From Saprospiraceae bacterium (GTDB lineage Bacteria > Bacteroidota > Bacteroidia > Chitinophagales > Saprospiraceae): 42,176 nucleotides of DNA. The translations under genes were made by a program, and so were the position numbers. The stretch is taken from assembly GCA_043744475.1 (NCBI GenBank), contig JAYTUR010000962.1:1-42176 (forward strand), written 5' to 3'. Position 1 is the stretch's first letter; each line of letters begins with the position of its first letter. Shown here piece after piece: positions 1,409 through 40,176 of the stretch. The notes under the pieces are model-generated. The model did no database searches, had not been told where the DNA came from, and worked only from the letters and a program-made list of their open reading frames with translations.

Positions 1409-4400
1409 TTATCCAACCCTCCGCACATTCTTCCTGTCAAAATTCTCGTCCGTCACAAGTAAATATTCGGTCTTACCAAATTTGACCCGCCCGTCTGTTC
1501 CTGCGGTTGGGTTAAACTCAAAACCCATGTATTTGCAGTAGAGCCGTACCTTTTCTTTGATGCGCTTTTCATCCATGTACTTTTTGTCATTCGGGAATGC
1601 ATCGGTGTAATCAATCAACACTTTCCGTTTTTCAACCGCCAAGTTGCGATAACATTGTGGGTCGTTGTTGAAAGGGTCACCATCTTCATCTGCACTAAAA
1701 TAGAGCTCGGCAAACTCCAAGAAATTCTCTCCTATTTCCTGTCTCAATTTGCGTTTTTCTAAGTCCGCGGTCGGTATCGTGTATTTGTTCAAGTCGGGAA
1801 ATTTCAAGTAGGTTTGGATGCACGTCGCCATAAAGTTGTAGAAGCGATTCCATTCCTCGTAATCCCATTCATTGAACATCAAGCGTCCGAAAGTATCCTG
1901 CGGAGTGCGAGCTGCATTGAAGTAATCTGAAAAACCAAGTAGGTATTGGCGGCGCATCGTCGAGTTGTCCGAGCCGCGTATCGCGTGATTGGTACTGAAG
2001 ATGAATTTTGGTGCAGGAATATTGAAGCGGCGTTGCCCTTTTTGATTGACCTCTACGCCCCGCGTGATTTGACTAAAAAAGTGTTCAAAATCCAAATTGA
2101 CACGGCAATCATCAAAAACAAGAATATTGGTACGTTCATCAACCCCATCGTAGATGTGTGGGTCTTCGGCGATGTTGCGCTTTTTGCCATCAATCACGAC
2201 CGTCGGCATCAGGTGTTCAAACATCGTGGCGTAAATGGATTTGCCAGAACCGCCCTGTGATTTGCCGACTTCGCTTTCGATGCCGTCCATCGCAATAATT
2301 GCCTTCATTTGGGCTTTGTTGCGATACTCATGCAACACATACCCTGCGGCAATCATTTTGCAAACGACGTGGGTAATGAGGTCTTGGCGTTCCTGCGCGG
2401 TCAATAACTCGCCGCCATCAGAGCGCGGAACGATGACATCGCGCCCATTTTCGCCTTTCTGCATCACTTCATTTTTGCGCCACCAAAAGTTTGAGGTGGC
2501 GAGCATGAATTGATACATATCGGTTTTCTTGCCCTCCTCAGATGTTTGAATTGACCACCCCTCAGTATCACCGCCTTTGACCCGCGAGATGCTTACCAAA
2601 GGCTTCGCCAAAAGCGACGGTTCAAAATTGATTATTTTGTCCGCCCAGATGGTTTTTGGTAATTCCGAAAGCGGATGCTCCTCGATGCCATCAGCCGTTA
2701 TCTTCCAATATTTTTTAGGAAAATAGAGGTATTGCGCTTCCTTTTCAGGTTCTGAAAATTCAGGCGCAGTGTAGTACATATTTGAGAGCTTATCGGGTCC
2801 GAGATACTGTGTGCCGCCTTTCAAAATCATATTTAATACCCCAATTTCGCCCAAATCCTCTGTGAAGGCTTTGATGAATTGCTGAATGCGGTGGTGGTCA
2901 ACCTCTTTCACAACCTTCCCTTCAGTGCGAATCATGCGGTATTTGTTCTTGCCCAAATCATAAAGCCCAAATCCACGATTCCTAAGAAATTGAAGACAAT
3001 TGTAATAATTGAAAGATAATGCTTCGCGCATACCTGTGCGGGTCGGTACTTCTTCGATTGTCCAATACTTTTCATACTCGAGTATTTTGTCCACCATCTC
3101 AAACCGCGCGCCGCCTTCCGCTTCTTCGTTCCAAGTCCAACGCTGTTTGTTGTACACAAATTCGCGGCGCAATTTGAGCGCGTCTTTATGAAAATCTAAA
3201 AACGATTGGGCATTGTGGAGATGCCAATGTTCGTAGATTTTTTGCGGCGACGTGAGCGTGATTTCATGCACATTCACATACTGCCCTTTGCCCTCGCGGT
3301 CAATCCGTGCGCGCTCAAAATCGGCTTCGAGTTCGATTTCTTTACCCAAAAATTGATGTACTAAAAGGTCATCCGCACCTTTCAGGACAACATCTTTACC
3401 GTAGGCAAAAAAGATGCGCAGTTCAATCCCTGCATTCTTATAACCATAGAAATAATCGCGAAATTTGACAACCGCAGAGGCAAAGGTTTTTGGTCGCCAA
3501 TCCACGTTATCCTCGTTTTTTGACAAACCTTGCCAATCTGAATCTAACAAAAACACAACGTTTTTAACCTCGCACCGCTTCAAAAGCATCTCAAGCTGCG
3601 ACGACATCCCCTCAAAAGTCAAATTATGAATACCGCCGATGCCGACAGTTTGCAAGCCGTGCAGCGTCATTTTGTCCGCTTTTTTTTCCCCCTCAGTAAC
3701 GTAGAGGGTTTCAAAAGTTTGGTGCGAGCTGTACGCCGCAATGATGGCGTTGGGCAACCAAAGCTGTGAACTGGACCGCGATGGGCTTTGGTACTTCATC
3801 GGTTTCCCTGCTTTCGACTTGTGCAATTCTGGATTTTGCCACCGCACCCGAAAATACCGTTTTGTTTTCCCCTTGGCATCGTTGTACATGACCGCCTCAC
3901 CTTTTAGATCCAGGTAATTCAATATCATGTCGTCCCCGGCGTTCAGGTTAAACATTTCGTTGACGCTGCCTTGCTCATAGCGACTGCGCTCTATAACTTT
4001 GCCACTGCCAATTTTCTCATTCCACTTGACCGCATCGGCAGGAATACCCGAAGCGAGCAACTGTAAATCCCTAAACGGCTTCTTTGAAACGGTACTTTTC
4101 ATCACATCACTTCCTTCAGTATCGTTGCCCAAATCGACGTTGAATTCACGCGCCACAATTTTGAGCGCATCAGGATAACTCAAATCCTGTGTTTTCATCA
4201 GAAAGTCAATCGCACCTATGCCGCCTTCGTCACATTTCCAGCATTTCCAAATATCCTTTGTCGCGCTCACCGAAAATTTCCCTTTTGCGCCGCACAATGG
4301 ACAATCCGCCACATGGTCGACACCCTTTTTTTTGAAAGCAAGGTACTTCGATGCGACTTCGATAAGTCCACGCTCCGCAGCTTCCTTGATGCGTTGTGCC

Positions 4401-10712: not shown

Positions 10713-11129
10713 GTGAATATCAATGACCGACTAAGAGAACTTATCAAAACATTAGGACTCAATAAGACTCAACTGGCAAAAGAGACGGGTTTAAATTACA
10801 CGACCTTAGATAGTGTTATCAATGAAAAAACAAACAATAAACCCTCTTTTGATACACTTTCAGCAATTTTATTAACGTATAGGCAAGTTGACCCTGATTG
10901 GTTGATTCATGGAATAGGAGATGTTTTCAGGAAAATGGAAATAACTAATTCAGAAAAATGGAATTTACAGAAAAATGAATTAAACGAAGACCCCCCTCAG
11001 TACAAACCCGATGCGAAGCCAAAACAAGACGAGCTCTCCGAAAAGCGATACGAGCTTTTATTGATTGAGATGGAAGCGATAAGGAAGCGGGTAGAAATGG
11101 TGGAGAAGGCATTGAAGCAGAAGAAATAA
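10713..11129 (+). CDS. XRE-family HTH repressor (CI-like)
   Basis: LRELIKTLGLNKTQLAKETGLNYTTLDSVINEK. GTG start as in the track. C-terminal coiled coil. Divergent from the Cro-like gene. Confidence 0.8.
   Translation: MNINDRLRELIKTLGLNKTQLAKETGLNYTTLDSVINEKTNNKPSFDTLSAILLTYRQVDPDWLIHGIGDVFRKMEITNSEKWNLQKNELNEDPPQYKPDAKPKQDELSEKRYELLLIEMEAIRKRVEMVEKALKQKK
10992..11002 (-). repeat. Dispersed motif TACTGAGGGGG
   Basis: Exact 11-mer in the repressor CDS (DPPQYK). Confidence 0.95.
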
Positions 11130-12208: not shown

Positions 12209-13303
12209 ATGATGAGAAAAAAAAATTTGCCTAAAATATACCCTTTGTCAAGGGATTTAAAAAAAGAGTGGTTTGTCTCTTGGCGTTTTTTAGATGAGAA
12301 CGGCTTTTCTAAGCTGGTAAAGGAGAGGATTCCTAATTTAAACACAATTGCTGAAAGGCTCGCCTACGGAGAAAAAATCAGTAAAAATTTATTAACGCAT
12401 GGCTGGAAACCAAAGGAGAAAAGTCCTTTTGCAGGTTCGGTGGATGCGATGAAGTTGGCTTTTGATTGGCTTCATGCTCGAAAGGGTGTGGTGCGACGGA
12501 AGACTTTTTTTACTTATCAGTCGCATTTGAAGAATTTAGATGCATTTGTGAAGTTGAAAAAATTTCGGTCGGTGAACTTGACATTGGCAGAGGCTTTCTT
12601 GGTGTCGCTTACTGAAGGGGGTAAGGCGGCGGCGACGGTCAATGCACATCGAAGGACTTTTAATCAGGCGTTTAATTTTTGTGTTCGTAAGAAAACGATG
12701 TCGAAAAATCCTTTTGAGGGGACTGAAAGGGTATCGGGGAGTTCGGATTCTAAGATGCCTTTTACAAAGACTCAAGCGCATTTTGTGAAGTCAAAAATGC
12801 CTGAAGAATTGTGGGCGGCGGCGCGGTGGTTGTATTACTGCTTTATAAGACCGGGTGAGCTGCGACAGATTCGGGTAGGGGAGTTGGATTTGGATGAAGG
12901 TAAAATATTGGTTAAGTCTGATATTTCTAAGAATCGAAAAAGTGAATGGGTGATTGTTCCCGCCGCTTTGATGAAGGAACTTGCGCCGCTTTGTCTATAT
13001 CAATATGACCCGACTTGGTTTTTGATTGGTGAAAATGGGTTGCCTTCTGAAACTACTGTGGGTTTCAACTTTTGGTCAAATCGGCATTTGAAGTTACTGA
13101 AGGCTTTGAACTTTGATACGAAACAATATTCGCTTTATAGTTGGAAACATTACGGTGTTTATAGGTTGGCAAAAGCAACTAAAGATTATAGGGCGGTGCA
13201 GCTTCAATGCCGGCATCACTCGTTGGACATGACTGTGCGCTACTTGAGGAAGATTGGTATCATGGAGTATAATAATATTCGTGATGATTTTCCAGAGGTG
13301 TGA
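12209..13303 (+). CDS. int: Tyrosine site-specific integrase
   Basis: SAM-like N-terminal domain. Catalytic-domain signatures CFIRPGELRQI, WKHYGVYRLA and CRHHSLDMTVRYL (H-x-x-R ... Y). Confidence 0.9.
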   Translation: MMRKKNLPKIYPLSRDLKKEWFVSWRFLDENGFSKLVKERIPNLNTIAERLAYGEKISKNLLTHGWKPKEKSPFAGSVDAMKLAFDWLHARKGVVRRKTFFTYQSHLKNLDAFVKLKKFRSVNLTLAEAFLVSLTEGGKAAATVNAHRRTFNQAFNFCVRKKTMSKNPFEGTERVSGSSDSKMPFTKTQAHFVKSKMPEELWAAARWLYYCFIRPGELRQIRVGELDLDEGKILVKSDISKNRKSEWVIVPAALMKELAPLCLYQYDPTWFLIGENGLPSETTVGFNFWSNRHLKLLKALNFDTKQYSLYSWKHYGVYRLAKATKDYRAVQLQCRHHSLDMTVRYLRKIGIMEYNNIRDDFPEV

Positions 13304-13376: not shown

Positions 13377-13919
13377 TTAGGAAAGATTTAAACTCAATTG
13401 CCCCTGCACCAATTCAATATCCATCTCCTTCAATGTCTTTGTAATGTGCTTCTCCTTTTTTTTCAGTTCCTGGATCCGTTGGTATTCGGCACTTTCCAAA
13501 AGTTGGGCATCCAATTTCTCTTGTAATTCCAAAATTTCCAATTGCGTTTCTGTTTTTTCGTTCAAGGCAGTCATGCGTCCTGTCATTGCGCCGTGGAAAT
13601 GGTTGAATAAAATTTCATAGCACTTACGCTTATAAAGTTTTAATTCGGCACTATCAGAACGGATTGAGAAGAGCCAACCATAAACAAATTTTTCGGGCAA
13701 ACAAACCATGTTTCGGAGCTTCCCGTCAGCAGCAACTATTGGCTGTTCAGCCAATAGTTCACTTAAAATTTCATCCTCTTTAATGTTCTTAAAAGTGCGT
13801 GTATACTCAATATTTAGAGCATCACAAATAGGCTTAATAGCAACCCACCATGTACCATCGGCAAGCAAAATCGATATGCGTTTGCCATTAAATTCTAAAA
13901 ACTTTTCTATGTTTTTCAT
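13377..13919 (-). CDS. Antirepressor-like protein (Bro-N / P22 AR N-terminal-like domain + coiled coil)
   Basis: FNGKRISILLADGTWWVAIKPICDALNIEYTRTFKNI...KFVYGWLFSI. The track start at 13937 is TTG; the first ATG is at 13917..13919. Confidence 0.7.
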   Translation of the reverse strand: MKNIEKFLEFNGKRISILLADGTWWVAIKPICDALNIEYTRTFKNIKEDEILSELLAEQPIVAADGKLRNMVCLPEKFVYGWLFSIRSDSAELKLYKRKCYEILFNHFHGAMTGRMTALNEKTETQLEILELQEKLDAQLLESAEYQRIQELKKKEKHITKTLKEMDIELVQGQLSLNLS

Positions 13920-13978: not shown

Positions 13979-14215
13979 TTATTTTACTGAGGGGTGTAGC
14001 GATAGATAATTGTATTTGTACAAAGCAGACTCCAACAAAATGCGAATACCCCAAAACGATTCCTGTCGTTCAATTTCGTTTTTAGGTTCTCGATAGTGAA
14101 TGTGCAAATCGCACAAGGCTAATGCCGCTTCTAATTGATTTTGGATTTGGCAAGATACGTCGATGGACGTAATGTCGCAAAAGGGATGGACGGGAGTGGA
14201 ATTTTGTTCTTTCAT
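13979..14215 (-). CDS. Small hypothetical protein (78 aa) downstream of structured-RNA cassette A
   Basis: ATG ORF ending HPSVK* within a dispersed-motif copy. Confidence 0.5.
   Translation of the reverse strand: MKEQNSTPVHPFCDITSIDVSCQIQNQLEAALALCDLHIHYREPKNEIERQESFWGIRILLESALYKYNYLSLHPSVK
13985..13994 (+). repeat. Dispersed motif TACTGAGGGG
   Basis: Exact 10-mer covering the last codons of ORF 13979..14215. Confidence 0.9.
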
Positions 14216-14255
14216 CGTGGTGGATGCTTTTAAAGATTAATGAAATTTGAATTAT

Positions 14256-14326
14256 AAAAAAAACGGCTGTCCCACATCCACCACAGATGCCTTTAGCACG
14301 GCAAAGCCGAGAAAGGAGGAACAGCC
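14256..14326 (-). terminator. Intrinsic terminator ending RNA A
   Basis: Stem 14318..14326 / 14265..14273 (9 bp, one G-U valid only in the minus-strand RNA), then U8 (14256..14263). Confidence 0.6.
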
Positions 14327-14420
14327 TAACCCAAAAACATTGGGCTTATCTTGAATCTAAACAGACTTTTTTTAAATAGGAAAGCCTAAACCGTACTAAC
14401 GCTATCATGTGGTGGACGAT
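14256..14420 (-). ncRNA. Candidate ~165-nt structured RNA / attenuator leader A
   Basis: Runs from the twin promoter to the terminator. Long-range complementarity between 14408..14416 and 14277..14285. Shares the UAGG-loop-CCUA hairpin with copy B. Confidence 0.45.
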
Positions 14421-14457
14421 ACGACAAAGATAGAAATAATCATGCCACAAAAACAAG
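14421..14457 (-). promoter_or_regulatory. Twin promoter, copy A
   Basis: 37/37 identical to 26059..26095. Minus strand reads CTTGTTTTTGTGGCATGATTATTTCTATCTTTGTCGT, with the TATCTTTG -7 box and upstream TTG/TTTG. Confidence 0.6.
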
Positions 14458-14474: not shown

Positions 14475-14508
14475 AAAAAAAGCCCCCTCAGTAACGAGAG
14501 GGCTTTTT
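14475..14508. terminator. Bidirectional terminator containing a dispersed-motif copy
   Basis: A7-GCCCCCTC-AGTAAC-GAGAGGGC-T5 (hairpin 14482..14503). Confidence 0.75.
14483..14493 (-). repeat. Dispersed motif TACTGAGGGGG
   Basis: Exact 11-mer forming an arm/loop of the terminator at 14482..14503. Confidence 0.95.
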
Positions 14509-25000: not shown

Positions 25001-25458
25001 CCTGCTATTTGTAAGAGCGAGCCATGCATCGGTTGTAACGACTTGGTAGCATCATCCGTCGTTTTAGACACTTTAGCTATTTCTGCATCTACTTTCTCAA
25101 TCTCCTGCGCAGATGCACCCACCTCTTTCAACTTCGCATTGTACTCCGCCGTACCACGTTTCAAGTTCTCCAACTCCTTCAGCAACTCGCTATGTTTCGT
25201 TTTGAGTTGATTGATTGACCCTTCAACCACAGGCGTAACCGCTTTGAAAGCATTGGCGTACTCCCTCAAAGCATTCTTTTGGTCAACAATGATGGTTTCC
25301 ACTTTCCGAAATCGCTCCGCCTTTTGTGCAAAGTCTTCCGTGCCTAATGTAGCCCTCCGCAGTTCTGCATTCAGGCGAGCTGCCTCCGCGGTGAGTCCTT
25401 TGAGCGTGTTATCAACTTCCTTTCCGTTTATGTATATCGTTGCGGTACTTTGAGCCAT
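22012..25458 (-). CDS. Tail tape measure protein (1148 aa)
   Basis: Long coiled-coil protein with a TMP-core-like segment GGELKQFTEAGVPLIAALAAQFKVSEAEIFKMSETGKIGFKDVEKAI. The track's TTG start at 25569 would span a terminator and promoter; ATG 25456..25458 (MAQSTATIYINGKEV) is preferred. Confidence 0.9.
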   Translation of the reverse strand: MAQSTATIYINGKEVDNTLKGLTAEAARLNAELRRATLGTEDFAQKAERFRKVETIIVDQKNALREYANAFKAVTPVVEGSINQLKTKHSELLKELENLKRGTAEYNAKLKEVGASAQEIEKVDAEIAKVSKTTDDATKSLQPMHGSLLQIAGVAAAAFAAQKVLEFGMAGIKAASDFEQAQIAFETMIGSSEKAGLLIQKIVELAAKTPFEQSELIDYSKRLLAMGIETEKIIPTMESLGNIAAGVGKEKLPQLVLAFGQVATKTKLAGGELKQFTEAGVPLIAALAAQFKVSEAEIFKMSETGKIGFKDVEKAIFAMSQEGGKFFNLMEKQSKTVDGLFSTLKDNIQIFSKNVFSSVANGLKPVLGFAIDFFDKFNKGFDSLTPRMDSMLKATEKERTELSVLVENVTKYEIGSQKRKAIIDQIVAIQPKFLAGLDKEKVTNEQLRDRLQEVNQQYLAKILAINAGKEVEASLTRQKNIVDKQAIAQLSYVDAIVKTRQVLNDSKSSATELAAKLRATFQNGSFYSKIFDGEAGQARDLLRVIESKRIASESYTEALGRESKVTNTAKLKQQQLLEELKKSFPQLAAQFDAIAAAAEKTDKVLDKGKPKVEGGVVDDKAKKELEKEQDKLLKLKEMLVQYQNDIDQMNATRDQSEAIKIKEKYDKQIEIAKELLLSKDPENRKEATRILKELQNKTNLEILAMLNKHNRELEEKIRKHEDEITATKLGEQEKRLNAIRESYKKELDAAKELEESGIPEIVAKGAAARIRLEKAMNAELQAETNKFNAEKVKKIAEDQAKEYADTEKFKQDMLKLNQDYEAILRDIEKPVIAIKPGSKEELEKTKADIKAKAEIDIQELQIKVDKEKAILGDDVEKKAKLEQALADKKKAIRIKADVDALKAEREFVNKSIAHYQDLANAIGNAFSALGDIIGNETAEAAALQKVAALAKIAVDTAQAISGVVAAAASTSITPIDLAIKVATGVAVVLANIATAKKILNDAPSVKQKKDGGYHVRGEDDGRVYDAQYIGSPRTGMLPSSPSLVLASEAGPEYFVSNAALTRPDVAWHVRMIDNIVSSGGVKQRKEGGYGGSSDAVEVKQVTSDTQLVAVLSELIRVLENGIDAKVSIGYAIVKEITEAQKRIQTIKG

Positions 25459-25481
25459 GTCTTTGTGTTTAAATTTTTGCT

Positions 25482-25518
25482 CAAAGTTCGACAGACACCA
25501 CCCCCTCAGTATGGACAT
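25482..25518 (-). promoter_or_regulatory. Late promoter-like module M5 (upstream of tape measure)
   Basis: Minus strand ATGTCCATACTGAGGGGGTGGTGTCTGTCGAACTTTG. Same 36-nt GTCC-to-TTTG frame, but the 11-mer is inverted and shifted 5 nt. Confidence 0.5.
25501..25511 (-). repeat. Dispersed motif TACTGAGGGGG
   Basis: Exact 11-mer inside module M5. Confidence 0.95.
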
Positions 25519-25549
25519 AAAAAAAGCCACACCGATTATCGGTATGGCT
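25519..25549 (-). terminator. Terminator preceding M5
   Basis: AGCCACACCGAT / ATCGGTATGGCT stem (one mismatch), then U7-8 on the minus strand. Confidence 0.7.
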
Positions 25550-25576
25550 TCATATAGTTTCAATGACAAAAATAAG

Positions 25577-25843
25577 TTATGCTACCGAGGGGGTCGCAGA
25601 TAAGGTATCTAATTTTGATAAAAGCCAGTGGTATTGTCTTTGCAGTTGAAAAGGAATGGTGTCACACGTCTCATGGGTTTCGGCTTTCTGCCACGCGTAA
25701 TCCAGAACATGAAAAGTAAAGTCGTCAAAATCTACTTCGGTAAGAAAATCCTCCACCGCCGACAAAATAATCTCTTTTTGGTCAGCATTGAGTTTGGAAA
25801 AATCGTAGCGTTCGCCACACATTAGAAATGGGTTCTTTTTCAT
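25577..25843 (-). CDS. Small hypothetical protein (88 aa) downstream of structured-RNA cassette B
   Basis: ATG ORF ending TPSVA* over a one-mismatch motif copy (TACCGAGGGGG, 25583..25593). Confidence 0.5.
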   Translation of the reverse strand: MKKNPFLMCGERYDFSKLNADQKEIILSAVEDFLTEVDFDDFTFHVLDYAWQKAETHETCDTIPFQLQRQYHWLLSKLDTLSATPSVA

Positions 25844-25888
25844 CTTAGGTTTGCAATTTAGATGATTAAAAATAGGATTTTAGAAATG

Positions 25889-25971
25889 CAAAAAGGCGCG
25901 TATGCCATTCCGCTGCAAACCACCTACAAGTAGGTATGCGTTTCCAAAACGCTCGGAATGACACACGCGCC
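25889..25971 (-). terminator. Intrinsic terminator ending RNA B
   Basis: 18-bp stem 25954..25971 / 25895..25912. Its two non-Watson-Crick positions are G-U in the minus-strand RNA (A-C on the other strand). Followed by U5. Confidence 0.7.
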
Positions 25972-26058
25972 TCCTTTTATAGAAACTGTATGTACTGGAT
26001 AGGCATAAAAAAAGCCTACTTCTTCAAGTAAGCTATTGCCTACTTGTATGTGGTTTGC
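25889..26058 (-). ncRNA. Candidate ~170-nt structured RNA / attenuator leader B
   Basis: The 5' segment 26039..26058 pairs 19/20 with 25915..25934, which lies inside the terminator loop. Confidence 0.45.
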
Positions 26059-26095
26059 ACGACAAAGATAGAAATAATCATGCCACAAAAACAAG
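26059..26095 (-). promoter_or_regulatory. Twin promoter, copy B
   Basis: 37/37 identical to 14421..14457. Similarity (~75%) continues into the upstream terminator. Confidence 0.6.
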
Positions 26096-26108
26096 AGTTT
26101 TTAAAAAT

Positions 26109-26141
26109 AAAAAAAACGCCCCCTCAGTAATGAGGTAGGCG
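26109..26141 (-). terminator. Terminator after the KilA-N gene, containing a dispersed-motif copy
   Basis: Hairpin CGCC-CCCTCA-GTAA-TGAGG-TAGGCG (26117..26141), then U8 on the minus strand (26109..26116). Confidence 0.75.
26119..26129 (-). repeat. Dispersed motif TACTGAGGGGG
   Basis: Exact 11-mer forming an arm of the terminator at 26117..26141. Confidence 0.95.
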
Positions 26142-26196
26142 TTCATGCTTTCAGTAACTTTTTAACCACCGTCTGAATAGACGGTGGTTAAATTTA

Positions 26197-26736
26197 TCAA
26201 TTATCCTCCATAGGCGTTTTGAATATATCCATTTGATTGCGATTGAACTTTGAACGTCCATAAGCTGCCTGTCTTTTTTCAAGTTCCAATTGTTCCAAAA
26301 CATTGTAGCGTGGGTCAGAGGTTCGGAGTTCCTCTCTCAATGCTTCAATTTTAGTTTCCCTTTCTGCCGATTCTTTTAAGTTCTTTTTGAGTTGGTTAAA
26401 TTCACCAAAAATGATTTTGTCAATAGTCGAATACACCCATAGTTCAAAAGCAGGATTGAGCCAAGCAGCAAACTTGAGGGCTAAGACTCGGTGCATCCAA
26501 GTACCTTCTTGTTGTTTAGATGTTACCAAATCTTCTTCAAATTTAATGTTTAAATTAGGAGAATTCTCCTTTTTTAAACACTCTTCAATAAAGGATTTTG
26601 TACTATCAAGTATCAAAAAATCCTTTGGAAATTTACCATAAACCTTCGCCATTTGCGTCGCATTGACTTTAAGGTTTTCATTGTTGAACTCGAATGTAAT
26701 TAAGTTCTCATTGAATTTAAAAGTTACTTCTGTCAT
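26197..26736 (-). CDS. KilA-N domain protein with a C-terminal coiled coil
   Basis: ATQMAKVYGK...EGTWMHRVLALKFAAWLNPAFELWVYSTIDKI. A low-GC island inside the virion module. Confidence 0.8.
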   Translation of the reverse strand: MTEVTFKFNENLITFEFNNENLKVNATQMAKVYGKFPKDFLILDSTKSFIEECLKKENSPNLNIKFEEDLVTSKQQEGTWMHRVLALKFAAWLNPAFELWVYSTIDKIIFGEFNQLKKNLKESAERETKIEALREELRTSDPRYNVLEQLELEKRQAAYGRSKFNRNQMDIFKTPMEDN

Positions 26737-26865
26737 TGTTCTAAAAATTTATATTGTAAATGAAAAGCAATATCGCTTTCAGGCACAAACATATTATAAT
26801 TAATTTTAATAAACAAATTATTTATAATATTTTTAAATAAAATGTTTAAAATATTTTCTGGACAT

Positions 26866-26895
26866 AAAAAAAGCGACCCCTCCGTAAGGCATCGC
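26866..26895 (-). terminator. Weaker terminator-like hairpin after the gp10-like gene
   Basis: GCGACC..GG..TCGC with a one-mismatch motif copy in the loop. U7 on the minus strand, then GTCC. Confidence 0.45.
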
Positions 26896-33085: not shown

Positions 33086-33122
33086 CAAAGTTCCGTTTTT
33101 ACTGAGGGGGTATTTCGGACAC
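33086..33122 (-). promoter_or_regulatory. Late promoter-like module M4
   Basis: Minus strand GTGTCCGAAATACCCCCTCAGTAAAAACGGAACTTTG, followed by the leader AGCAAAAAAA and then ATG. Confidence 0.55.
33100..33110 (+). repeat. Dispersed motif TACTGAGGGGG
   Basis: Exact 11-mer inside module M4. Confidence 0.95.
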
Positions 33123-35970: not shown

Positions 35971-36007
35971 CAAAATTGCGGATTTACGGAGGGGGTGTTT
36001 CGGACAT
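35971..36007 (-). promoter_or_regulatory. Late promoter-like module M3
   Basis: Minus strand ATGTCCGAAACACCCCCTCCGTAAATCCGCAATTTTG, 35/37 identical to M2. Confidence 0.55.
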
Positions 36008-37440: not shown

Positions 37441-37546
37441 ATGATTTATGAATTGTGAATTGTGAATTGTAAGCTATGAATTATGAGTTATGAATTATGA
37501 ATTATTTTAAAAAACTCATAACTCATAATTCATAACTCACAACTAA
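37441..37546. repeat. Heptanucleotide-periodic repeat block forming a long hairpin after the capsid gene
   Basis: TGAATTG x3 (37449..37469), then (A/G)TTATGA units, mirrored by TCATAA(C/T) units. Perfect 19-bp stem 37475..37493 / 37516..37534. Confidence 0.85.
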
Positions 37547-38536
37547 TTAAGCTGGCGGTTCGGCGTCTGAAATCCACAGCGTTTGGAAATTTTCAACCCC
37601 CACAAACATTTGGGTTTCACCCAAACCTTTCAGCGTGCGGTCAAATTCTTGCCAACGAATGGTCGGCACGATGTCGCCGCCGTTGTTGCGCAAGCCAAAC
37701 ACCAGGTTATCTTCCATTTCCGAGGCATCCAAAATCAAACGTTGTTTGCCCGACATAGAAGGGCACGCAACGAGCGTTTTGTTGGAAAAAGGAATTTTGA
37801 TACTGCGGTCAAATCCTTCATCTTTTACGTTCGCCACATAGCCGTTTTTGACATACAGGGCATATTGGTACAAGTCAAGGATTTCGGGTGCGCACAAAAC
37901 TTTGCGCGGCACTGCTTTCACGACTTCGGGCAAACTGTCGCAGAACAATTTGATTTTGTCAAAAACATTGCTTGAAGTGATTGTACCAACTGTAACGATG
38001 CGACCCGTCATTTTCGACGCAGTGATGGCGTTGTTAATGATTAACTCTAAGCCGTCAATAGCGGCAATTGCCACGCCTGCTGTGCCTGCTGTTGGGGTCA
38101 CTTTCACACCCTTGTAAATCATCTTTTGCTCAAAGGCTTGACGTGCAACAGGGTAAATGTGATTCGCAACAAGATAATCAGAGAAAAACTTGTAGTCGAA
38201 TACGGATTTGCCCAAAGGCGACATCGAAGGGTCCCAACTTGCCAAAAAAGAGTTTAACTCCGTTGCTGTCCATTGAATGTCGATTTTGACGGGTTGCAAA
38301 ACGTAGGTTTCAGAGGTCAGGGTTTCGGTATTGTTCGGCGTAAAAGCACTTTGATAACCCTGAAACAAATCGCCTGTGAGCGAAATATTGGGTGCAGCAT
38401 ACGCATAATCAACACGAACCGTTTTGAAATGCTTGAGCGTTACGATATCTTGACGCAACACGGCATTCATTCCAGCTTTGTACCGCGTCGCTTGTTGATT
38501 CAGAGCGGCGGCGGTTGAGGCAATTAAATTAGCCAT
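37547..38536 (-). CDS. Major capsid protein (by position and size)
   Basis: 329 aa, immediately after the protease/scaffold gene. Followed by a very strong hairpin. Confidence 0.7.
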   Translation of the reverse strand: MANLIASTAAALNQQATRYKAGMNAVLRQDIVTLKHFKTVRVDYAYAAPNISLTGDLFQGYQSAFTPNNTETLTSETYVLQPVKIDIQWTATELNSFLASWDPSMSPLGKSVFDYKFFSDYLVANHIYPVARQAFEQKMIYKGVKVTPTAGTAGVAIAAIDGLELIINNAITASKMTGRIVTVGTITSSNVFDKIKLFCDSLPEVVKAVPRKVLCAPEILDLYQYALYVKNGYVANVKDEGFDRSIKIPFSNKTLVACPSMSGKQRLILDASEMEDNLVFGLRNNGGDIVPTIRWQEFDRTLKGLGETQMFVGVENFQTLWISDAEPPA

Positions 38537-40139: not shown

Positions 40140-40176
40140 CAAAATTGCGGATTTACTGAGGGGGTGTTTCGGACAA
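40140..40176 (-). promoter_or_regulatory. Late promoter-like module M2 (upstream of the head operon)
   Basis: Minus strand TTGTCCGAAACACCCCCTCAGTAAATCCGCAATTTTG. The ATG follows 4 nt later. Confidence 0.55.
40154..40164 (+). repeat. Dispersed motif TACTGAGGGGG
   Basis: Exact 11-mer inside module M2. Confidence 0.95.

Follow-up and report, generated by a model that had tools for sequence, protein, structure and literature searches.

Why should one stretch of DNA carry the same promoter twice, each time followed by a different sequence that is complementary to itself? The question arises from a 42,176-nucleotide (nt) stretch of Saprospiraceae DNA (contig JAYTUR010000962.1 of assembly GCA_043744475.1, analysed over its whole length; hereafter the window), in which two minus-strand elements, cassettes A and B, each combine a promoter, a long hairpin and a small open reading frame (ORF). 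An initial annotation, made from the letters alone, had proposed that the two are twins of one architecture with different pairing sequences, and both the sequence of the cassettes and the comparative evidence from a wider family agree with this proposal. Our analysis indicates that cassette B is a real leader-RNA control module: about 30 cassettes in Bacteroidota phages and prophages have its layout with about 20 different pairing cores, and the three pairing segments that had been claimed, at the 5′ end of the transcript, in the terminator loop and at the start codon, covary across them. The common layout consists of a host-type promoter, a segment X at about +1, a long terminator hairpin (T2) with the antisense segment X′ flush on its 3′ arm, a U-run, and a second sense copy, X2, at or overlapping a start codon, which belongs either to a small ORF or to an antirepressor gene, ant.

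The promoter of cassette B reads CTTG-N21-TATCTTTG on the minus strand and conforms to the Bacteroidota housekeeping-sigma consensus (−33 TTTG/TTG, −7 TAnnTTTG, spacer of ~19–21 nt), from the position of which the transcription start site (TSS) was predicted. The X segment pairs with X′ at 19 of 20 positions, against 15 of 20 in the best of 5000 dinucleotide shuffles of the leader. The 18-base-pair (bp) stem of T2 is followed by U5, and its two imperfect positions are G-U in the minus-strand RNA and A-C on the plus strand. T2 has the G+C-rich stem and the U-run, on the transcribed strand, of an intrinsic terminator, with a loop (~41 nt) that is unusually large for one, and the 3′ end of the leader RNA is predicted to arise by intrinsic termination. 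The stem geometry, the strand asymmetry, the U5 tract, the pairing of X with X′ inside the terminator loop and the third copy of the sequence 4 nt before the AUG were all reproduced, in coordinates and in counts, as the initial annotation had given them. The leader together with the first ORF codons (25835–26058, 224 nt) folds with z = −7.1 relative to shuffles. The coordinates of all features are collected in Table 1.

Table 1 Features of cassettes B and A and their predicted leader RNAs.
Feature	Position	Strand	Description
Upstream terminator of the KilA-N gene	26109..26141	minus	Hairpin 26141-26117; 3′ arm is the phage-wide motif ACTGAGGGGG, then T-run
Bacteroidota-type promoter	26059..26095	minus	−33 TTG; −7 box TATCTTTG at 26070-26063; predicted TSS G26058
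X	26039..26058	minus	First 20 predicted transcribed nt, GCAAACCACAUACAAGUAGG; 19/20 complementary to X′
H1 hairpin	26025..26046	minus	3′ half of X (CAAGUAGGC) pairs with GCUUACUUG; −11.7 kcal/mol; proposed T1 antiterminator
T1, early terminator-like hairpin	26006..26034	minus	AGCUUACUU/AAGUAGGCU (26034-26013), 9-bp stem, then U7; consensus scan
H3 hairpin	25999..26019	minus	GUAGGC-U7AU-GCCUAU (62-nt fold); takes the T1 3′ arm once T1 is passed
T2, long terminator hairpin	25895..25971	minus	18-bp stem 25971-25954 / 25912-25895; encloses hairpin P3 (25952-25938) and X′
X′, antisense segment	25915..25934	minus	CCUACUUGUAGGUGGUUUGC; towards the 3′ end of the T2 loop, with 2 nt between it and the 3′ arm
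U5 tract after T2	25890..25894	minus	Predicted 3′ end; RNA of ~165–170 nt
X2, second sense copy	25848..25856	minus	UUGCAAACC; 9 bp with X′; ends 4 nt before the AUG at 25843
88-amino-acid (aa) ORF under cassette B	25577..25843	minus	Orphan; predicted helical and acidic; motif CCCCCTCGGT in the last codons
Strong intrinsic terminator closing the cassette B unit	25523..25551	minus	Tape-measure promoter module next
Twin cassette A	14201..14457	minus	Promoter 14457-14421, then leader, 78-aa ORF (14215-13979) and ant (13919-13377)
Cassette A X	14419-14404	minus	
Cassette A T2 arms	14326-14318 and 14273-14265	minus	
Cassette A X′	14288-14274	minus	
Cassette A U8	14263-14256	minus	
Cassette A X2	14227-14217	minus	1 nt before the AUG at 14215

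The 88-aa ORF had no homologue among 5.8 billion proteins and none in IMG/VR, neither it nor the 78-aa ORF of cassette A matched Pfam or PHROG, and its AlphaFold2 model was unreliable (predicted local distance difference test score, 56). The exact promoter 22-mer gave no match in IMG/VR, the region gave none by blastn against 50,697 GenBank phages, and the cassette matched no Rfam family.

The promoters of A (14421–14457) and B (26059–26095) are identical at 37 of 37 positions, as had been reported, and the identity stops exactly at the predicted −1. A wider promoter block of 58 nt is 91% identical, and the similarity runs on through the preceding motif-containing terminators, which also bore out the initial annotation. 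Downstream of −1 the two sequences diverge, and the architecture and the internal complementarity alone are kept. A put-type antitermination RNA, as in phage HK022, binds RNA polymerase, and copies of it behind different promoters therefore retain one sequence and structure; this reading was rejected because A and B differ in sequence past −1. The leader of A had no homologue in the collected data beyond a fragment of this phage, identical in sequence, that a different sequencing run had yielded (Logan SRR22198270, L211, positions 1–2196); this contig begins within the repeated promoter, as would be expected if the 37–58-nt repeat breaks short-read assemblies. The promoter spacer GTGGCAYGRTTRTTT (26072–26086 and 14434–14448) is also conserved in B-type cassettes of other phages (L212, ~3330–3345; L117, ~715–730), and no further copy was found in the window. 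Promoter spacers are normally free to vary, and this one may, by analogy with Oc4 in P1, be an operator.

The ant gene next to cassette A has hundreds of homologues, and the family was sampled from ~100 ant loci in metagenomes, metagenome-assembled genomes (MAGs) and Logan assemblies, with Saprospiraceae, Chitinophagaceae, Daejeonella and Mucilaginibacter among the named MAG hosts. The scan was anchored on the promoter: a TAnnTTTG box had to be followed closely by an X with a complementary X′ further downstream, and an X2 able to pair with that core had to adjoin the start of an ORF. The ant-linked loci contain 532 such boxes, which yielded 28 hits, representing 26 distinct cassettes with about 20 different cores; every one of these cassettes has the −7 box by construction of the scan. 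The nulls were unrelated loci and an X-swap, the reverse strand and the region downstream of ant holding genuine cassettes: 878 boxes in 115 unrelated viral loci gave no hit, and 1596 X-swap tests gave 3 hits, which we attribute, unchecked, to swaps between homologous cassettes. In A, in B and in the 26 scanned cassettes, an antisense segment is flanked by an upstream and a downstream sense copy within one transcript, which is the arrangement of c4/CI-type RNAs.

The spacing of the elements is regular as well. Of the 26 cassettes, 21 have X beginning 3–4 nt past the −7 box, and 23 have the end of X′ at −3 to +2 nt from the 3′ arm of the long stem, which is usually followed by a U-rich tail. 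The first nucleotide of X2 coincides with the U of the AUG in 17, whereas the long B-type leaders (A and B of the window, L117, L122 and L212) place X2 10–12 nt before the AUG. In the canonical leaders the promoter reads TTTG-N19-TACCTTTG. The family was extended by a covariance model of the core (L187, L197 and L200), by inspection (L135 and L196), by extra look-ups (L212, L214, L215 and L217) and by BLAST (L202). Among homologues of B, L202, from a Saprospiraceae MAG, is the closest, at 79% identity over 243 nt. The covariance model R1, of the short canonical subfamily core, found new members and missed A and B, which are therefore without detectable homology to that core. Cassettes were located upstream of ant, directly on ant (L205 and L196), or downstream of ant before ORFs of 56–150 aa. 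The small ORFs behind them fall into many unrelated groups with no known domains, and the leader is therefore a portable control module. A type I toxin–antitoxin reading is unlikely, the ORFs being diverse and hydrophilic or acidic. Literature searches returned no description of such an element in Bacteroidota.

Two further observations concern the sense copies. X is a weakened copy of X2 in L177, L153, L205, L182, L127, L135 and L215, with C-to-U changes that leave U-G wobbles against X′, and X′ in these loci is perfectly complementary to X2, which suggests that the relative strengths of the X:X′ and X′:X2 duplexes may be tuned. A covarying 16-bp X:X′ and a conserved terminator core without X2 were found at L193:3886-4062, L197:3880-4045 and L200 (same), and these cassettes may represent a transcription-only version of the switch.

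The paired segments also change together. In an alignment of 12 sequences of the canonical subfamily (A3), both sides have changed at 11 of the 15 X:X′ pairs and at 8 of the 20 pairs of the long T2 stem and its inner hairpin, P3. In this alignment 91.7% of the cells are paired, compared with 31–43% when the partners are slid by 1–3 columns, and the observed covariation was reached by none of 500 shuffles. The X′:X2 pairing of the canonical subfamily likewise shows both-side changes at 9 of 13 pairs. In an alignment of four B-type leaders (A8), 14 of 53 pairs in X:X′, T1, T2 and P3 change on both sides, again a level that 0 of 500 shuffles attained; T2 contributes five compensatory pairs, and H1 and X′:X2 add 5 more out of 18. 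X covaries with X′ in L202, L212 and L117.

These changes cluster in a hexamer, which is exchanged simultaneously at the three sites (examples are TCGAAA, ATTTCA, TTCCAA, TTCACA, TTCAAA and TTACAA). L154 and L176, for instance, agree at 95% of 161 other columns and yet at only 3 of the 18 hexamer-site positions, and L119 and L214 share a common backbone with GCUCAC in one and GACCAC in the other at X, X′ and X2. Between B and its closest homologue, GCAAACC is changed to GCAACAC at X and X2 and GGUUUGC to GUGUUGC at X′, and a second compensatory pair further along changes A to G in X and U to C in X′.

Is the pairing selected in RNA or in DNA? Across the family, the non-Watson-Crick positions of X:X′ comprise 22 G-U, 1 A-C and 4 others, an asymmetry that is somewhat favored by ascertainment because the seed search tolerated G-U, although the extension rule did admit isolated mismatches of every kind. 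The excess of G-U over A-C in X:X′, together with that in the T2 stem of B, therefore points to selection on the minus-strand transcript and argues against DNA repeats, operators or recombination sites. If X, X′ and X2 were protein operators or recombination/inversion sites, no strand asymmetry would be expected, and the imperfections of the T2 stem in B would not be G-U on the minus strand only. X and X′ do form a 21-bp inverted repeat with a distance of 104 nt, X and X2 are direct repeats, and invertible promoters with short inverted repeats are common in Bacteroidota; about 20 unrelated cores, however, would demand as many binding proteins, and the fixed spacing to the promoter box, the terminator arm and the AUG fits a transcript. 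We regard a DNA-level element as very improbable.

In the predicted RNA, little separates the best nested fold of B with X:X′ (−69.3 kcal/mol) from that with T2 (−68.6 kcal/mol), and A favors X:X′ (−56.5 versus −43.5 kcal/mol with T2). With X free, X:X′ is in the minimum-energy fold of 16 of 26 cassettes, and blocking X leads to a stem enclosing X′ in nearly all members, the recorded tails being usually U-rich. X′ and the 3′ arm of T2 are contiguous or overlap by ≤3 nt across the family. The duplex energies predicted for B are −31.5 kcal/mol for X:X′ and −12.8 kcal/mol for X′:X2 (9 bp).

The 5′ part of B looks like a three-hairpin attenuator in these folding models, with the availability of X as its input. 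T1, a hairpin additional to those of the initial annotation, also has the features of an intrinsic terminator in its 9-bp stem and U7. T1 with U7 folds at −10.6 kcal/mol against −11.7 kcal/mol for H1, and the two hairpins are mutually exclusive: H1 dominates when X is free (pair probability 0.91 versus 0.06), and T1 is the minimum-energy fold when X is blocked. The H1/T1/H3 module is conserved in L202, L212 and L117, where T1 is kept with compensatory changes, and the TTTTTTTATGCC block of H3 is conserved in A8. The UAGG-loop-CCUA hairpin that the initial annotation had pointed out is indeed present in B, as H3, but it is better read as one arm of this attenuator. Termination at T1, at about +53, could give an RNA shorter than ~170 nt. 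We rejected T1 as a general feature of the family, as neither cassette A nor the short canonical subfamily has it.

The model that fits best, and that we hold to be somewhat more probable than its negation, is a leader RNA that acts like c4/CI, both in cis and in trans. The promoter would fire at about 26058, and a free X would capture X′ as X′ emerges, which would hinder T2, permit read-through and leave X2 and the AUG open. When X:X′ formed first, the 5′ arm of T2 would lie in a closed loop and its 3′ arm would be tethered to the polymerase, and the terminator would wind too late. When X was occupied, T2 would form and, in B-type leaders, T1 as well, because the 3′ half of X is the T1 antiterminator (via H1). 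The agent occupying X would be the terminated leader RNA itself (~165–170 nt, or ~50 nt if T1 acts), displaying X′: in trans, it would cause premature termination by binding X of nascent leaders, and would block translation by binding X2. The variable X/X′/X2 core would set which phages or cassettes cross-react. Cassette A, in which X2 lies 1 nt before the AUG of the small ORF ahead of ant, would control this ORF and the antirepressor Ant; cassette B, in which the ORF is followed by a terminator and the tape-measure gene instead of ant, would control the orphan 88-aa moron gene. The rapid switching of the core at three sites in near-identical leaders and the presence of two cores behind identical promoters would be expected if specificity in trans matters, recall the heteroimmunity of P1 and P7, and would be unexpected for a purely cis helix. 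An extended version, to which we give somewhat less than an even chance, would make the RNA a diffusible immunity factor with a 6–10-nt address that is read at the 5′ end (termination) and at the AUG (translation block) of every cognate transcript, resident or incoming, and would involve an orthogonal library of such addresses, switching driven by an arms race between related phages, and an origin independent of the enterobacterial c4/CI RNAs.

The same folds can be explained by a purely cis-acting attenuator without a trans regulator, in which X:X′ antiterminates T2 and keeps the AUG open, and the availability of X is set by some other factor, such as an RNA-binding protein, 5′-end processing or decay, transcription speed, temperature or a host small RNA. 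The near-isoenergetic alternatives in B, the preference of A for X:X′, the terminator fold that appears in almost all members on blocking X, the abutment of X′ on the 3′ arm of T2 and the perfect 16-bp X:X′ kept by members without X2 are all as such an attenuator would have them, but it does not account for a 6-nt core that is rapidly exchanged in concert at three sites while the rest of the leader stays 91–95% identical, or for different cores behind an identical promoter in one genome. Moreover, X′:X2 covaries, yet in cis the stronger X:X′ would rarely permit it to form. We consider this explanation unlikely, if well short of negligible. More doubtful still is an activation like that by IsrK, in which X′:X2 in cis would silence the read-through mRNA and the short RNA would open it in trans, for example with X as a decoy for X′, so that the leader RNA would turn the small ORF and ant on, not off. 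In B the X of the same molecule forms a much stronger and longer duplex with X′ than X2 does, the T1 attenuator of B-type leaders predicts termination on X masking, and there is no Rfam match to IsrK or the C4 clan; these points stand against a layout that is that of Gifsy-1 isrK-orf45-anrP, with a small RNA and intrinsic terminator, read-through into a small ORF and an antirepressor (PMC4825925), and against the finding that X′ is often a perfect complement of X2 with X weakened by C-to-U changes. Overall, activation of this kind seems improbable.

Several points also weigh against the c4/CI-like model itself. The TSS, the ends, the termination efficiency and the trans action of the ~170-nt RNA are all predicted from sequence. 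Because the terminated RNA carries X besides X′, self-masking is possible, unless processing removes X or the topology of the loop keeps the two apart. In most members X:X′ and T2 share no nucleotides, and their mutual exclusion rests on nested-fold energetics and on steric and topological reasoning; by the same models, a static pseudoknot holding both helices is possible. The X′:X2 duplex of B (−12.8 kcal/mol) is weaker than the one predicted between X′ of B and X2 of A (−15.1 kcal/mol), and cross-talk between the twins is a possibility in these calculations. The absence of T1 from cassette A and the short canonical subfamily counts in the same direction, and translational control cannot be general, as L193, L197 and L200 keep a perfect 16-bp X:X′ and lack an X2 at the AUG that follows. 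Finally, the Rfam families C4 (RF01695) and c4-a1b1 (RF03163) of clan CL00128 had no hit in the window at the gathering threshold, the clan had none at E ≤ 10 in 25400–26300 and none in 18 related loci, whereas P1, as the positive control, scored 68.8 bits with C4 and 51 bits with c4-a1b1; and neither the 88-aa nor the 78-aa ORF gave a significant BLASTP alignment with P1 Icd.

The genes around the cassettes were confirmed by domain matches: KilA-N (PF04383) and tape measure (PF20155) at cassette B, and P22_AR_N/Bro-N for the antirepressor that A had been said to precede. The lysogeny module of the window consists of a Cro/CI-type helix-turn-helix protein (10713–11129, plus strand), a tyrosine integrase (12209–13303, plus) and the antirepressor (13377–13919, minus), and the CI-type protein and the integrase therefore mark the phage as temperate. 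At one prophage end the antirepressor and integrase genes converge, and the same integrase-proximal site is occupied by ant and cassettes in several relatives. Scans of IMG/VR with the Ant and KilA-N proteins gave no match.

The initial annotation had placed B between a KilA-N moron and the tape-measure module. These neighbours stand, but B belongs to the moron insertion itself and does not lie beside it. A related contig, IMGVR_UViG_3300037882_004998, is 72–78% identical in the structural genes, and in it a 140-aa gene leads directly into the terminator, the motif and the tape-measure gene; relative to the related phage, the sequence comparison identifies the KilA-N gene, cassette B and the 88-aa ORF (~25530–26880) as one ~1.35-kb insertion. 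Direct repeats (25512–25533 and 26859–26880, beginning TGGACATAAAAAAAGC and 91% identical) flank this block, which is absent from the related phage L116, and they are probably the junctions of the moron insertion at the terminator/motif module.

The motif in question is a 10-mer, ACTGAGGGGG/CCCCCTCAGT, which occurs at 25 window sites with ≤1 mismatch, compared with 0.9 expected (among them 40155–40164, 35986–35995, 33101–33110, 25501–25510, 26119–26128, 14483–14492, 25584–25593 and 13986–13995). It is dense also in the nearest relatives (L117, L118 and L015/L116) and in some IMG/VR contigs; a scan of IMG/VR with a 14-mer of the motif gave mostly chance single matches and one true relative, L015/L116. 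Before several genes its context on the mRNA strand is GTCCGAAA[CT]A-CCCCCTCAGT-AAA...[CG]AA[CT]TTTG-AGCAAAAA, and it is inverted ahead of the tape-measure gene. Given this distribution, the 10-mer resembles a promoter or activator site specific to the phage. Upstream of each cassette it supplies the terminator hairpin with its 3′ arm, and in both small ORFs it falls within the final codons (Pro-Ser-Val); each cassette unit is therefore bracketed by inverted copies of the motif. Elsewhere in the window, between two minus-strand ORFs, an intergenic cluster of 30-nt inverted repeats (37467–37547) is made of ATGAATTATGAGTTATGAATT-like units that are 87–90% complementary and 12–16 nt apart.

To our knowledge, RNA-based immunity (c4 of P1/P7, CI of P4 and IsrK of Gifsy-1) is known only from enterobacterial phages, and phage lysogeny control in Bacteroidota is almost unstudied. 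The cassette family would extend the logic of RNA immunity to Bacteroidota with a different build, in which the antisense lies within an intrinsic terminator and the targets are the 5′ end of the transcript and the AUG; we infer that the placement of X2 on the AUG suits the Bacteroidota hosts, which are largely without Shine-Dalgarno sequences. If the extended version of the model is true, temperate phages of Bacteroidota would have an RNA-only layer of immunity or exclusion. The cassettes give a directly testable handle on how poorly studied Bacteroidota prophages control antirepressors and moron genes. The ~20 natural, apparently orthogonal cores on a common scaffold could also be of use for studies of co-transcriptional switching or as Bacteroidota regulators.

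Among the known systems, the early module of B-type leaders has the form of a trp-type attenuator, with H1 as 1:2, T1 and U7 as 2:3 and H3 as 3:4, and with the occupancy of segment 1 deciding termination. Unlike the trp type, it has no leader peptide; the transcript begins with segment 1, which is complementary to a loop further down this RNA, and the input is likely to be RNA rather than the ribosome. In Salmonella, the promoter-proximal small RNA IsrK of Gifsy-1 has a Rho-independent terminator at its end, past which some transcription continues into orf45 and anrP; the sequences by which the short RNA acts in trans on the long isoform pair in cis as well (PMC4825925). IsrK, however, activates translation, its pairing partner lies inside orf45 and not at the 5′ end and the AUG, and neither a three-site repeat nor a hypervariable core has been described for Gifsy-1. 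In P4, the antisense segment seqB of the leader-derived CI RNA pairs with seqA upstream and seqC downstream within one transcription unit and causes premature termination, as summarized in PMC4825925. H1/T1 of the B-type leaders, which predicts termination on X masking, would follow the same logic. The P4 CI RNA arises by processing and the pairing itself terminates, whereas here intrinsic terminators are built into the leader; there is no similarity in sequence or by covariance model, and where P4 controls replication genes, the genes behind the cassettes are small accessory ORFs or ant.

Cassette B is most like the coliphages P1 and P4 in their immunity by antisense RNA. By sequence and covariance-model comparison, the cassette family resembles c4/CI in logic, lies outside the c4 family and is uncatalogued. 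One continuous pairing segment of 9–20 nt takes the place of the two 7–8-nt boxes of P1. The antisense sits in the loop of an intrinsic terminator, whereas c4 is a tRNA-like RNA cut out by RNase P; ARAGORN found no tRNA-like gene in the window. X starts at about +1, X2 usually overlaps the AUG, and the B-type leaders have an extra early attenuator. The hosts here are Bacteroidota and those of P1 are Proteobacteria, for which, with their phages, the Rfam families C4 and c4-a1b1 are listed (PMC2864571). In the RefSeq annotation, the immI region of P1 runs from the promoter through a1, b1, the c4 RNA, a2, b2, icd (73 aa) and ant1/2 to kilA. A single transcript carries a1 and b1 as upstream sense copies, the antisense c4, and a2 and b2 as downstream sense copies across the start region of icd. 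The order of X, X′, X2, the 78-aa ORF and ant in cassette A corresponds to this at every element. Heteroimmunity separates P1 from P7, and here too the specificity of the core differs between related phages.

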